From: Simkaniaceae bacterium | GTDB lineage: Bacteria; Chlamydiota; Chlamydiia; Chlamydiales; JACRBE01 | Assembly (NCBI GenBank): GCA_022763045.1 | Contig: JALEGI010000007.1 | Location: forward strand, 64,555-128,554 | DNA: 64,000 bases | Direction: 5' to 3' | In this document: one piece after another, positions 37,901-39,364 of the stretch | Position numbering within the stretch: the first letter of the stretch is position 1 | Layout of the letters: every line of letters starts with the position of its first letter | Program-made: the position numbers and the translations under genes | Notes under the pieces: model-generated | Told to the model about the DNA's origin: nothing | Database searches by the model: none | What the model saw: the letters and a program-made list of their open reading frames with translations, nothing else

Positions 37901-39364
37901 ATGGCAGTTCGGACTATTGGGGATACAAGATATGTTGGCCCTCTTTTAAAAGAGGAAAATGATGCACGCATTGAATACGCGACAATGCTTTTTGGTAAAG
38001 AGCACATTGACTTTGCTAGAAGCCAGCCCTATGCCCAGAATGGAAATGACTACCTATGGGCAACGATCTGCGCAACGTTAGATGACACAGCAATCAAACA
38101 CCTAATTGATCATTTTGAGACCGCAGTTGGTGTATTGACAGCATTTTTTGGAACGCCTGATCAGTGGCAGCCCATTCTCGATGCCTACCGCAATCCGACA
38201 GACACCTCAAACTATGACGCAATCAGAGCCCTTTTTAACAAAGTAGATGGCCACCCTTTAACCAGCTACTTTACCGATTTTCCTCCAGAATTAACCCCCG
38301 AATTAAAAACACGCGAAAGAGCCTCAAGGGCAGCTAATGCTGCAATTCATATTCAAGCTGCATACCGCAGACACACAGCCAAGAGCGCATTCGCTACAAC
38401 CCGAACAGCCACTATTACCGTCCAATCTGCAACTCGTGGCTTTATTGCACGACGTAACTTTCTTAAAAACAAAACAGCTGCGACTCTCTTCCAAACTGCT
38501 TTCCGTCGCTTCCAGGCCAAGAGTGCATTCACTACAAGCCGATCAGCTGCTACTTCCATCCAATCTGCAACTCGTGGCTTTATTGCACGACGTAACTTTC
38601 TTAAAAACAAAACAGCTGCGACTCTTTTCCAAACTGCTTTCCGTCGCTTCCAGGCCAAGAGCTCATTTACTACAACCCGAATAGCCGCTATTTCTATCCA
38701 ATCTACTGCTCGTGGCTTCATTGCACGACGTAGTTTACACAATCAGAAACAGCAAAGGGCTGCTACTCGAATTCAAGCAGCTTTACGCGGTTACATAGCC
38801 AAAAGCTCATTTGTAAAGACTCGAAGGGCGGCTAAGCTTGTCGCACGTTTCTCATACAAGAAACTTGCATATCCAAGAGCTTCAAAATATATTCAAGAAT
38901 TAGTAGGAACGCCACAGGGTAAGATTCAAATCAAACACGTAGTGAATCTGAGAGAGCGCATTATCGAACTAATAAAGGCGAGTGAGTTAGAAGCTGCACG
39001 AGTTGAATTTGAAAAGCTAAGAAATCCCTGTCCCAAAACTACAGATTTTTCACCTGATACGGCTAAAAAGATCGCTTTTTCAGTAAACCTTCTTCTTAGG
39101 CGAGTAGAAGATCATTTAGCACTGAAAACTGCTACAACAACTTCCGATACTGGCACCTGGTATGGTAAACCATTGAAATTCATTTGGGATGGGATGCTTG
39201 GTGGAGCTATTGCTGGAGCTACTGCGACCGTTATTTCTGGACCAGGATCGGCTGCAGGTGGTTTTGCAGGTAGCATTGGGGGCGGTGTATATGCAATCGG
39301 CAAATTAATTTTTAGCAGTTCACCTACCTCTGCAACCTGTGAATGCGCGCCTAGTCGCAAGTAA
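37901..39364 (+). CDS. Eukaryote-like IQ-motif (calmodulin/light-chain-binding) repeat protein with C-terminal bilobed glycine-rich hydrophobic domain
   Basis: Seven consecutive IQ-type motifs (IHIQAAYRRHTAKSAF, ITVQSATRGFIARRNF, TLFQTAFRRFQAKSAF, TSIQSATRGFIARRNF, TLFQTAFRRFQAKSSF, ISIQSTARGFIARRSL, TRIQAALRGYIAKSSF), with Q at residues 152, 175, 198, 221, 244, 267 and 292. The C-terminus is GMLGGAIAGATATVISGPGSAAGGFAGSIGGGVYAIGKLIF. Confidence 0.7.
   Translation: MAVRTIGDTRYVGPLLKEENDARIEYATMLFGKEHIDFARSQPYAQNGNDYLWATICATLDDTAIKHLIDHFETAVGVLTAFFGTPDQWQPILDAYRNPTDTSNYDAIRALFNKVDGHPLTSYFTDFPPELTPELKTRERASRAANAAIHIQAAYRRHTAKSAFATTRTATITVQSATRGFIARRNFLKNKTAATLFQTAFRRFQAKSAFTTSRSAATSIQSATRGFIARRNFLKNKTAATLFQTAFRRFQAKSSFTTTRIAAISIQSTARGFIARRSLHNQKQQRAATRIQAALRGYIAKSSFVKTRRAAKLVARFSYKKLAYPRASKYIQELVGTPQGKIQIKHVVNLRERIIELIKASELEAARVEFEKLRNPCPKTTDFSPDTAKKIAFSVNLLLRRVEDHLALKTATTTSDTGTWYGKPLKFIWDGMLGGAIAGATATVISGPGSAAGGFAGSIGGGVYAIGKLIFSSSPTSATCECAPSRK
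38375..38735 (+). repeat. 138-bp tandem repeat (about 2.6 copies) inside the IQ-protein gene; each unit encodes two 23-aa IQ motifs
   Basis: tccaatctgcaactcgtggctttattgcacgacgtaactttcttaaaaacaaaacagctgcgactct... occurs at 38421 and again at 38559 (period 138 nt), almost identical. A third, more diverged partial unit follows. Confidence 0.85.

Follow-up and report, generated by a model that had tools for sequence, protein, structure and literature searches.

In the genome of an uncultured environmental chlamydia related to the Simkaniaceae, we identified a gene whose product carries seven tandem IQ motifs, an array that is far beyond chance. It is a real bacterial, lineage-specific gene, and part of its array arose in place by recent duplication of a two-motif unit. 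For its function we put forward a reading that we consider evenly balanced between right and wrong, namely that the IQ-array protein is a myosin-neck-like rod without a motor, secreted and membrane-tethered, that docks several calmodulins. The gene lies within the 64,000-nt stretch of DNA analyzed here (the window), and the gene and its motifs are as follows:

37901..39364, forward strand: complete IQ-array gene, stop codon included, coding for 487 aa (from the list of open reading frames)
38339..38407, forward strand: IQ1, residues 147–169, core IQAAYRRHTAKSAF; relaxed, with R replacing G7; 19.8 bits
38408..38476, forward strand: IQ2, residues 170–192, core VQSATRGFIARRNF; complete; 23.1 bits
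38477..38545, forward strand: IQ3, residues 193–215, core FQTAFRRFQAKSAF; relaxed; 17.2 bits
38546..38614, forward strand: IQ4, residues 216–238, core IQSATRGFIARRNF; complete; core and 3′ flank the same as those of IQ2
38615..38683, forward strand: IQ5, residues 239–261, core FQTAFRRFQAKSSF; relaxed; near-identical to IQ3 and within the 138-nt repeat described below
38684..38752, forward strand: IQ6, residues 262–284, core IQSTARGFIARRSL; complete; 23.7 bits
38759..38827, forward strand: IQ7, residues 287–309, core IQAALRGYIAKSSF; complete; 25 residues past IQ6; 22.8 bits

A relaxed pattern, [FILVAT]Qxxx[RK]xxxx[RK], matches the protein exactly seven times, with the glutamines at residues 152, 175, 198, 221, 244, 267, and 292 and hence Q-to-Q spacings of 23, 23, 23, 23, 23, and 25 residues; the strict consensus, [FILV]QxxxRGxxx[RK]xx[FILVWY], matches four times (VQSATRGFIARRNF, IQSATRGFIARRNF, IQSTARGFIARRSL, and IQAALRGYIAKSSF). 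The pattern search thus returns the same seven glutamines and spacings that the initial annotation had placed at 38342–38860 (residues 148–320), and every peptide and position quoted there is correct. Pfam PF00612 (IQ) scores 82.2 bits against the whole protein (E = 5.3e-24), the curated gathering cutoff being 20.3 bits. When motifs are scanned singly, IQ2, IQ6, and IQ7 exceed that cutoff (23.1, 23.7, and 22.8 bits, respectively), and IQ4 is identical over residues 221–238 (the core and its 3′ flank) to IQ2, the peptide that scored 23.1 bits; IQ1 and IQ3 fall slightly under it (19.8 and 17.2 bits), and IQ5 is near-identical to IQ3. These scores agree with the earlier description of alternate copies as more relaxed. 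Complete IQxxxRGxxxR sites alternate with relaxed IQxxxRRxxxK sites, and in the three relaxed copies an R takes the place of G7 while the rest is intact. All seven motifs keep hydrophobic 1, Q2, R6, basic 11, and hydrophobic 14; apart from the four consensus G7 residues, the stretch from residue 130 to residue 330 has no glycine. For a putative eighth motif at residues 308–330, Pfam gives no match.

IQ motifs have been defined as strictly alpha-helical, proline-free, and net basic, at about +2 to +5 per motif (PMC4914028), and judged by its composition and predicted helicity the array fits this definition. Proline is absent from residues 134–324 (~190 residues), Asp and Glu are absent from residues 147–310, and the net charge over these last 164 aa is +33, with +4 to +6 for each 23-mer motif; the array region is helical in a single-sequence AF2 model of the protein, which is of low confidence (pLDDT 38). 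In 20,000 shuffles of residues 140–320, the mean number of relaxed motifs was 0.11 and the maximum 2, as against the seven observed, and a DNA pattern for four in-phase motifs has three matches in the window and none in 100 shuffles. When all six-frame open reading frames of the window are searched (48,154 aa), the strict core turns up four times in this protein, twice in the open reading frame at 43892–44641, and once in a non-coding frame.

In sequence comparisons with the PDB, the six-IQ lever arm of myosin Va came out best (E = 3.9e-9, 154 residues in phase), which bears out the proposed likeness of the array to the neck of an unconventional myosin. The two share tandem IQ motifs on one long helix, the 23/25-residue spacing, and the presence of both complete IQxxxRGxxxR motifs and RR-type (FRRMMAK-like) motifs. 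Unlike myosin Va, however, the IQ-array protein has no motor domain, coiled coil, or cargo-binding tail—a search for the myosin motor PF00063 gave no match at E up to 10—and instead of an alternating 23/25 pattern it has seven motifs with five consecutive 23-residue spacings; the domains joined to its array are bacterial orphans and a hydrophobic hairpin rich in Gly. Matches to eukaryotic IQ proteins and myosins come from diverse eukaryotes, have 24–37% identity, and cover the IQ region only. The evidence does not point to transfer from a specific eukaryotic donor: homology does not extend beyond the repeat, the flanking domains have no homologues, and the array was partly duplicated in place. 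Small, non-motor eukaryotic IQ proteins that tether or buffer calmodulin, including neuromodulin/GAP-43, neurogranin, PEP-19, and the plant IQD scaffolds, hold Ca2+-free calmodulin, in GAP-43 and the IQDs at the membrane or cytoskeleton. Each of these has one motif or an IQ67 domain, and we saw no similarity to the IQ-array protein beyond the motif.

The duplication within the array is visible in the DNA:

38378..38732, forward strand: tandem repeat with a 138-nt unit (46 aa, two IQ motifs), 2.6 copies (Tandem Repeats Finder, 89% match)

Repeat units 1 and 2 have 10 nucleotide differences. The inter-motif linker, which makes up the first 43 nt, accounts for nine of these; the remaining 95 nt hold a single difference, which is synonymous. 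The differences between these two youngest units largely keep clear of the motif cores.

The gene is the second of a closely spaced pair:

35946..37892, forward strand: upstream operon partner, an open reading frame coding for a 648-aa orphan with a GYSQGG (GxSxG-type) motif
37891..37896, forward strand: Shine–Dalgarno sequence AGGAGG of the IQ-array gene, 4 nt before the ATG, read directly from the sequence

Because this AGGAGG overlaps the TAG stop of the upstream gene (the stop-to-start gap is 8 nt), the two genes form an operon arrangement with translational coupling. The 3′ end of the IQ-array gene overlaps a convergent MscS gene by 14 nt. The order NadE-HtpG-[slot]-MscS-YajC-TrmA is common to the window and 10 chlamydial metagenome-assembled genomes (MAGs), with the IQ-array gene inside the slot between HtpG and MscS/YajC; this slot is variable, and relatives carry other, unrelated open reading frames there. 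The conserved chlamydial gene order on both sides and the ribosome-binding site uphold the initial annotation in treating this as a bacterial protein. In the syntenic loci of 11 chlamydial relatives, we found no homologue of the IQ-array protein, its operon partner, or the second IQ-like protein described below. The upstream partner is an orphan as well, with no match in Pfam, NCBIfam, or PDB and a low-confidence single-sequence AF2 model (pLDDT 41); its C terminus has a Gly-rich hydrophobic segment similar to that of the IQ-array protein (hydropathy maximum 1.51 at residues 604–622) and ends in CSC. The GC3 of the IQ-array gene is 0.34, versus 0.50–0.65 in housekeeping neighbors. This GC3, the lineage restriction, and the variable slot can be counted as effector-like traits of the gene.

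Outside the array, the protein consists of four regions:

37901..38338, forward strand: N-terminal acidic, helical orphan domain, residues 1–146, net charge −7; no Pfam match
38831..39166, forward strand: helical middle region, an orphan, residues 311–422; no homologue and no Pfam match; helical in the low-confidence AF2 model
39167..39313, forward strand: Gly/Ala-rich two-lobe hydrophobic hairpin, a candidate membrane anchor, residues 423–471 around a GPGS turn
39314..39361, forward strand: Ser/Thr/Cys-rich tail containing CEC, read from the sequence (the upstream protein ends in CSC)

An exhaustive HMMER search with the N-terminal 147 aa against 1.84 billion representative proteins found no true homologue; two matches were rejected as repeat artifacts, one to a junk repeat and one to LysM repeats. 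The domain is weakly similar to residues 73–164 of the upstream protein (pairwise E = 0.005), and the N terminus itself (MAVRTIGDTRYVGPLLKEEND) has no obvious likeness to a type III signal and no decisive features. A search with the C-terminal 177 aa gave no homologue, NCBIfam and PADLOC gave no matches, and the separate non-IQ segments gave nothing meaningful against Pfam. The protein is a singleton in a 5.8-billion-protein database, and whole-protein and genome-contig searches, together with an exact-sequence contig look-up, returned no orthologue, with similarity limited to the IQ region; the protein is thus an orphan outside its array, and conservation is unusable as evidence of function because there are no orthologues to compare.

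The initial annotation had described the C-terminal hydrophobic domain as Inc-like, and the geometry agrees with this. The bilobal domain of Inc proteins consists of two transmembrane helices of 15–32 residues separated by a loop of <30 (PMC3048545), and the lobes here, at about residues 427–445 and 451–471, are ~19–23 residues long with a loop of ~5, within those ranges although with low hydrophobicity. In the low-confidence AF2 model, the hairpin forms two helices (residues 423–445 and 451–471) on either side of GPGS. On the Kyte–Doolittle scale, however, the lobes peak at only 1.37 and 1.15 (19-residue averages), and a simple summing of Hessa values gives +5.2 and +6.3 kcal/mol. Both lobes are well under the usual transmembrane hydrophobicity, so that membrane anchoring by the hairpin is uncertain. 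Transmembrane segments of secreted effectors typically have a hydrophobicity just under the threshold for inner-membrane targeting (PMC6110835). The IQ-array protein shares with Inc proteins a chlamydial origin, lineage specificity, a largely helical makeup, and a two-lobe hydrophobic segment, but its lobes are glycine-rich and of low hydrophobicity and its domain lies at the extreme C terminus; together, these features weakly support a possible Inc-like nature of the C terminus.

A second IQ-like protein is encoded 4.5 kb downstream:

43892..44641, reverse strand: second IQ-like protein, 249 aa

It has two complete IQ cores, VQARVRGLIAR and LQALARGRAAR (nt 44165–44272), together with a strong hydrophobic segment at 50–68, a proline-rich tract, and a C-terminal hydrophobic segment. 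Against Pfam IQ, the whole protein scores 15.6 bits and its motif 1, scanned singly, 20.3 bits; the GC3 of its gene is 0.36.

The earlier assertion that IQ motifs are essentially eukaryotic does not hold. A scan of 185,579 prokaryotic species genomes with a strict DNA pattern, which makes the count a lower bound, identified 21 open reading frames with at least two complete IQ cores (~20 in addition to the array described here), ten of which were confirmed with Pfam; they carry two to seven motifs, mostly 23 residues apart. A membrane anchor or autotransporter domain is present in 8 of the 21, and most of the identifiable carriers belong to host-associated lineages. The Pfam-confirmed carriers include two Chlamydiales MAGs, a Rickettsiaceae autotransporter, a Rickettsiales MAG, Dependentiae, Ca. 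Comchoanobacterales (here alongside a two-lobe hydrophobic domain), several Gammaproteobacteria and Pseudomonadota MAGs, and a cultured Corallococcus sp., whose protein has seven motifs and 34.5% identity over 165 aa. This protein and the chlamydial array are the two longest and most regular arrays that we found. The likeness of the other proteins to the IQ-array protein is confined to the array, with unrelated N- and C-terminal parts, and they are therefore independent combinations rather than orthologues. A search of the literature for multi-IQ bacterial or chlamydial proteins found none, and bacterial tandem-IQ proteins are apparently undescribed.

There are precedents for bacterial proteins that engage calmodulin or its relatives. 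Legionella pneumophila SidJ is a calmodulin-activated glutamylase whose C-terminal IQ helix binds host calmodulin independently of Ca2+ (PMC6858067), and Chlamydia CteG binds centrin-2, a calmodulin-family protein (PMC10193975). SidJ and the IQ-array protein are both bacterial proteins with a eukaryote-type IQ motif, but in SidJ one IQ helix switches on an adjacent catalytic domain with 1:1 stoichiometry, whereas the IQ-array protein has seven motifs and no catalytic domain recognizable in Pfam or NCBIfam.

Our proposal for the protein follows from its layout. It would be exported into the host cell, and type III secretion is the known route for chlamydial effectors. The Gly-rich, moderately hydrophobic C-terminal hairpin would then keep it on a membrane that faces the host, for example that of the inclusion, and the operon partner, with its similar C-terminal segment, may sit there too. 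Complete IQ sites typically bind Ca2+-free calmodulin, and as many as seven host calmodulins, or light chains resembling calmodulin, could occupy the IQ helix. A likely outcome would be a membrane-tethered calmodulin sink or reservoir that locally blunts or reshapes Ca2+/calmodulin signaling around the bacterial vacuole; the light-chain-stiffened array would also make a rod of ~25 nm presenting the orphan N-terminal domain.

Among other explanations, the one that survives best, although we think it unlikely, has the array act independently of calmodulin as a basic helical repeat, either a rigid spacer or a binder of polyanions (nucleic acid or acidic lipid), in the bacterium or on its envelope, with an IQ likeness that is convergent or a relic. 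With a net charge of +33 and no acidic residue in 164 aa, the array would bind polyanions non-specifically, and export to the host is a step that we infer. The seven-IQ array of Corallococcus, a predatory, free-living myxobacterium in which the gene has native codon usage, means that IQ arrays exist in non-intracellular bacteria. However, the match to the IQ motif is position-specific rather than compositional, with Q2, R6, G7 or R7, basic 11, and hydrophobic 14 present in seven of seven motifs in exact 23-residue phase, and shuffles of the same composition reach two motifs at most. To our knowledge, the only known partners of the IQ motif are eukaryotic, and host-associated lineages are overrepresented among the other bacterial carriers; we know of no calmodulin in Chlamydiae.

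Somewhat less probable still is a young, fast-evolving orphan open reading frame with little or no function, in which a small IQ-like fragment, taken from a host or formed de novo, multiplied through replication slippage or recombination. A singleton without an orthologue, with atypical GC3, a recent 138-nt duplication, and a place in a variable genomic slot, has much that such an origin would leave, but the 487-codon frame is intact and comes with a consensus ribosome-binding site and an operon arrangement. Moreover, the changes between repeat units spare the motif cores, and although the older copies IQ1, IQ6, and IQ7 have diverged, none of their key positions has been lost, an argument that the motif is under selection. 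The second IQ protein nearby, which is not a duplicate, also speaks against an array of little function.

We regard as very improbable that the partner of the IQ helix is a bacterial EF-hand-like protein instead of host calmodulin. One candidate is a 577-aa orphan (30801–32534, reverse strand) with weak matches to PF00036 (E = 0.036) and PF13405 (E = 0.17) at residues 447–467, where FDSNGSFKLTFKEF fits most EF-hand loop positions; these matches are nevertheless far under the Pfam cutoffs, loop position 6 is Phe rather than Gly, only one of its three repeats is loop-like, and the repeats are ~100 residues apart and unpaired. The candidate also has no operon link to the IQ-array gene, being on the opposite strand and 5.4 kb away. 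An assembly chimera or eukaryotic contamination, in which part of a host myosin or IQ gene was misjoined into a bacterial contig, has a negligible claim. The IQ region does find its best database matches among eukaryotic IQ proteins and myosins, but on both sides the gene is bordered by chlamydial genes whose order is conserved, its bacterial ribosome-binding site overlaps the upstream stop, its 3′ end shares 14 nt with the convergent MscS gene, and there is no motor domain and no eukaryotic homology beyond an array that is only 24–37% identical to eukaryotic ones.

Being nearly invariant across eukaryotes, calmodulin offers an ideal, universal handle to a bacterium whose hosts are protists or unknown. 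Those bacterial proteins that are known to use calmodulin do so singly, with calmodulin as an activator, as in SidJ and the adenylate cyclase toxins; docking of up to seven calmodulins on one helix would mean stoichiometric capture or membrane scaffolding, and would place the protein nearer to eukaryotic calmodulin buffers or the myosin neck than to any described effector. We raise more tentatively, and with some doubt, that membrane-tethered multi-IQ "calmodulin racks" are an unrecognized class of bacterial host-interaction proteins. Such racks would have been assembled independently by Chlamydiae, Rickettsiales, Dependentiae, Comchoanobacterales, and others, and at the pathogen–host interface would each hold several calmodulins or light chains of the host; there, Ca2+/calmodulin signaling would be buffered or redirected, or the light chains of host myosins captured. 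The ~20 unrelated bacterial genomes with tandem IQ motifs provide a small set in which to ask whether multivalent calmodulin docking is general in intracellular bacteria, and the recurrence of these arrays may matter as much as the chlamydial protein itself.

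The 487-codon ORF at 37901-39364 (+) contains a tandem array of IQ motifs. A relaxed IQ pattern matches its product (the IQ protein) exactly seven times, with the glutamines at residues 152, 175, 198, 221, 244, 267, and 292 and spacings of 23 residues five times and then 25; the strict consensus matches four times. The peptides, glutamine positions, motif number, and 23/25-residue spacing of the initial annotation are all reproduced by translating this ORF, and the Pfam scan it proposed as a check returns PF00612 at 82.2 bits (E 5.3e-24) on the whole protein, the cut-off being 20.3 bits. 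Scanned singly, IQ2, IQ6, and IQ7 score above that cut-off (23.1, 23.7, and 22.8 bits) and IQ1 and IQ3 slightly under it (19.8 and 17.2 bits); IQ4, which had no scan of its own, is identical to IQ2 in its core and 3′ flank, and IQ5 is near-identical to IQ3. From these scores and sequences we therefore read the array as A-B-A-B-A-B-B′, where A is an IQxxxRRxxxK site and B a complete IQxxxRGxxxR site. The hydrophobic position 1, Q2, R6, basic position 11, and hydrophobic position 14 are kept in all seven copies, and the four glycines within residues 130-330 all fall at consensus position 7. Residues 134-324 are free of proline and residues 147-310 of acidic residues, and the net charge is +4 to +6 per 23-mer; the array fits the published description of the IQ motif as a basic, proline-free, and strictly helical element of 20-25 residues (PMC4914028). 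By sequence, the solved structure closest to the array is myosin Va's six-IQ lever arm (7yv9; E 3.9e-9), which stays in phase with it across 154 residues, small gaps falling at myosin's 25-residue spacings; this bears out the suggested likeness to a myosin neck. The motor domain is absent, so the IQ protein is myosin-neck-like but not a myosin.

The seven-motif array exceeds chance: 20,000 shuffles of residues 140-320 give at most two relaxed motifs (mean 0.11), and a DNA pattern that requires four motifs in phase has three matches in the window but none in any of 100 shuffles. By Tandem Repeats Finder, a 138-nt unit encoding 46 aa (one A and one B motif) is present in 2.6 copies with 89% match, and such near-identical tandem units mean that at least part of the array grew in place and did not arrive whole. 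Between units 1 and 2 there are just 10 differing nucleotides, nine of them in the first 43 nt (the inter-motif linker), and the other 95 nt, which hold the motif cores, carry one change, a synonymous one; we calculate a binomial estimate of about 2e-4 for this clustering, which is compatible either with purifying selection on the cores or with a gene-conversion tract. All key positions are kept even in IQ1, IQ6, and IQ7, the older and more diverged copies.

Two further ORFs of the window bear on the IQ gene:
35946-37892, forward strand: operon partner, a 648-aa orphan with a Ser/Thr/Pro-rich disordered N-terminus and a GYSQGG motif
43892-44641, reverse strand: second IQ protein, 249 aa, GC3 0.36

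An AGGAGG ribosome-binding site lies 4 nt before the IQ-gene ATG and overlaps the TAG stop of the partner ORF, and at its 3′ end the IQ gene runs 14 nt (39351-39364) into the convergent MscS-family gene (39351-40169, -). A chlamydial origin is confirmed by the window's RND transporter (70% identity to uncultured Chlamydiae MAGs), by its HtpG (at most 60-64% identity to MAGs of Simkaniaceae and other chlamydiae), and by the order NadE-(Fer2 reductase)-(SNF symporter)-HtpG-[slot]-(MscS)-YajC-TrmA-(aminotransferase IV), common to ten chlamydial MAGs. The ribosome-binding site/stop overlap, the chlamydial neighbours, and the conserved order therefore make contamination or chimerism very unlikely. 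The slot between HtpG and MscS/YajC (35872-39350 in the window) ranges from about 50 nt to 9 kb across these MAGs and in each relative holds unrelated, lineage-specific ORFs; here its occupants are the 648-aa orphan and the IQ gene, with GC3 of 0.38 and 0.34, whereas housekeeping neighbours have 0.50-0.65. The slot of Ca. Acheromyda pituitae contains a 2893-aa ORF, and that of another relative (L087) a proline-rich ORF of 703 aa whose C-terminus has a hydrophobic segment.

For the partner, no homologue was found in any database searched. The partner's GYSQGG motif has the form of the GxSxG nucleophile elbow typical of alpha/beta hydrolases and lipases, and a low-confidence AF2 model places it in a strand-turn-helix. 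Its C-terminus has a Gly-rich hydrophobic segment and a terminal CSC, which by sequence resembles a CXC prenylation or acylation motif. In the six-frame ORFs of the whole window, the strict core is confined to the IQ protein, the second IQ protein, and a single occurrence in a non-coding frame. The second IQ protein has a strongly hydrophobic segment (residues 50-68), the complete cores VQARVRGLIAR and LQALARGRAAR 22 residues apart (nt 44165-44272), a proline-rich tract PLPLPPLPPSPTPTP, and a C-terminal hydrophobic segment; Pfam IQ gives it 15.6 bits as a whole, and its first motif on its own 20.3 bits. It is no duplicate of the first IQ protein, no orthologue was seen in the relatives' syntenic loci, and it shows that this organism puts the IQ module to use more than once, again beside a membrane segment.

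Elsewhere in the window, ORF 30801-32534 (-) codes for an orphan of 577 aa whose N-terminus is rich in Ser and Pro and whose middle is proline-rich; it has three ~50-aa repeats, one with an EF-hand-like loop FDSNGSFKLTFKEF (Pfam EF-hand sub-threshold, E 0.036 and 0.17). A 342-aa orphan at 29710-30738 (-; GC3 0.29), with weak helix-turn-helix/transposase-like matches (E 0.004-0.15), adjoins other ORFs of atypical composition. At least eight paralogous family-25 glycosyltransferase genes (PF01755, LPS-type) and a GT92/GT2-like gene, mostly on the forward strand, occupy 5027-26785, and from about 4 to 24 kb the GC content is about 0.39-0.40, compared with 0.45-0.50 for most of the remainder; the run looks like a lineage-specific expansion or island.

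Outside its array the IQ protein is an orphan. A whole-protein search returns only itself and eukaryotic IQ proteins and myosins, aligned to the array at 24-37% identity; the C-terminal 177 residues have no match in a homology search, and for the N-terminal 147 residues an exhaustive HMMER search of 1.84 billion representatives gives two repeat artefacts only. These searches yielded none of the orthologues that the initial annotation had suggested looking for, and Pfam, NCBIfam, and PADLOC recognise nothing beyond IQ. The N-terminal domain is acidic and helical, with weak similarity to partner residues 73-164 (pairwise E 0.005), and AF2 without an alignment gives all-helical, low-confidence models for both proteins. 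Residues 423-471 make up a two-lobe segment rich in Gly and Ala, MLGGAIAGATATVISGPGSAAGGFAGSIGGGVYAIGKLIF, after which comes a Ser/Thr/Cys tail with CEC, and the partner has a comparable C-terminal segment, IIGFLGLPGAIGGALASKL. The lobe lengths and loop of the IQ protein agree with the published definition of chlamydial Inc proteins (PMC3048545). The proposed Inc-like anchor is a candidate, fitting in geometry but low in hydrophobicity (Kyte-Doolittle maxima 1.37 and 1.15; Hessa-scale sums +5.2 and +6.3 kcal/mol, compared with -0.9 for a typical transmembrane segment of the nearby 249-aa ORF). Secreted transmembrane effectors tend to lie slightly under the hydrophobicity that triggers bacterial inner-membrane insertion (PMC6110835), and the hairpin is thus compatible with a candidate post-secretion anchor, without proving one.

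A scan of 185,579 prokaryotic species genomes for a pair of complete IQxxxRGxxx[RK] motifs at a spacing of exactly 23 residues found 31 loci, compared with about 10 expected by chance (a rough figure from base frequencies); 21 of them have an ORF with at least two strict cores, and Pfam IQ confirmed all ten ORFs tested. The Pfam-confirmed proteins come from the following:
Two Chlamydiales MAGs: two and four IQ motifs
Rickettsiaceae MAG, L168:362-4072, reverse strand: IQ motifs and a C-terminal autotransporter beta-domain
Rickettsiales MAG: tandem IQ motifs
Dependentiae single-cell genome: five to six IQ motifs and hydrophobic segments
Ca. Comchoanobacterales (a Gammaproteobacteria order by NCBI lineage), L172:3035-4414, forward strand: Inc-like two-lobe hydrophobic domain (residues 69-122), then four IQ motifs
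Several Gammaproteobacteria and Pseudomonadota MAGs: tandem IQ motifs
Corallococcus sp. RDP092CA, a cultured myxobacterium, L181:2890-4725, forward strand: 612 aa, seven IQ motifs, Pfam IQ 141 bits

The Corallococcus array, spaced at 23 residues five times and then 29, is the best bacterial match to ours (34.5% identity over 165 aa), and the GC3 of its gene, 0.95, is native to its genome. A strongly hydrophobic segment or autotransporter domain is present in 8 of the 21 ORFs, and the Ca. Comchoanobacterales and Rickettsiaceae proteins are predicted membrane-displayed IQ arrays of host-associated bacteria. Likeness to our protein is limited to the array, so the motif has been joined independently to different partners. 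By this strict lower bound, tandem IQ arrays occur in roughly 0.01% of bacterial species; they are rare yet recurrent, mainly in lineages living with eukaryotes, and the view that IQ motifs are essentially eukaryotic was overstated.

The established precedent is Legionella SidJ, which binds calmodulin through a single IQ helix, independently of Ca2+ (PMC6858067), and Chlamydia CteG binds the calmodulin-family protein centrin-2 (PMC10193975). Our literature search found no paper describing multi-IQ bacterial proteins. The IQ protein may belong among the proteins that target host calmodulin by eukaryotic-like motifs, its own targeting being putative.

The IQ protein is a real, lineage-specific chlamydial protein, encoded in an operon, whose seven canonical IQ sites lie in phase on a long, proline-free, and very likely helical stretch between an orphan domain and a weakly hydrophobic hairpin. 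Type III secretion is the known chlamydial route, by which the protein would be exported; the hairpin would tether it to a host-facing membrane, and the array could take up as many as seven calmodulins or light chains of the host. Complete IQ sites bind Ca2+-free calmodulin tightly, and those without G7 are looser binders or favour other light chains; occupancy along the alternating A and B sites could therefore be mixed or Ca2+-sensitive. The result would be a local sink or reservoir of calmodulin and a stiff rod of about 25 nm. We put the whole mechanism, from export to sink and rod, at about an even chance.

The array might instead be a basic helix acting inside the bacterium independently of calmodulin, which we consider unlikely, and we are a little more doubtful that the protein is a young orphan with little function. 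A bacterial EF-hand-like protein as its binding partner is very improbable, the sole hint being the sub-threshold matches in ORF 30801-32534, and an assembly artefact is scarcely credible against the conserved chlamydial gene order, the bacterial ribosome-binding site, and the overlaps with neighbour genes. For the putative calmodulin- or light-chain-binding array, what is noteworthy is its multivalency, together with the recurrence of related, apparently undescribed arrays in other host-associated bacteria.
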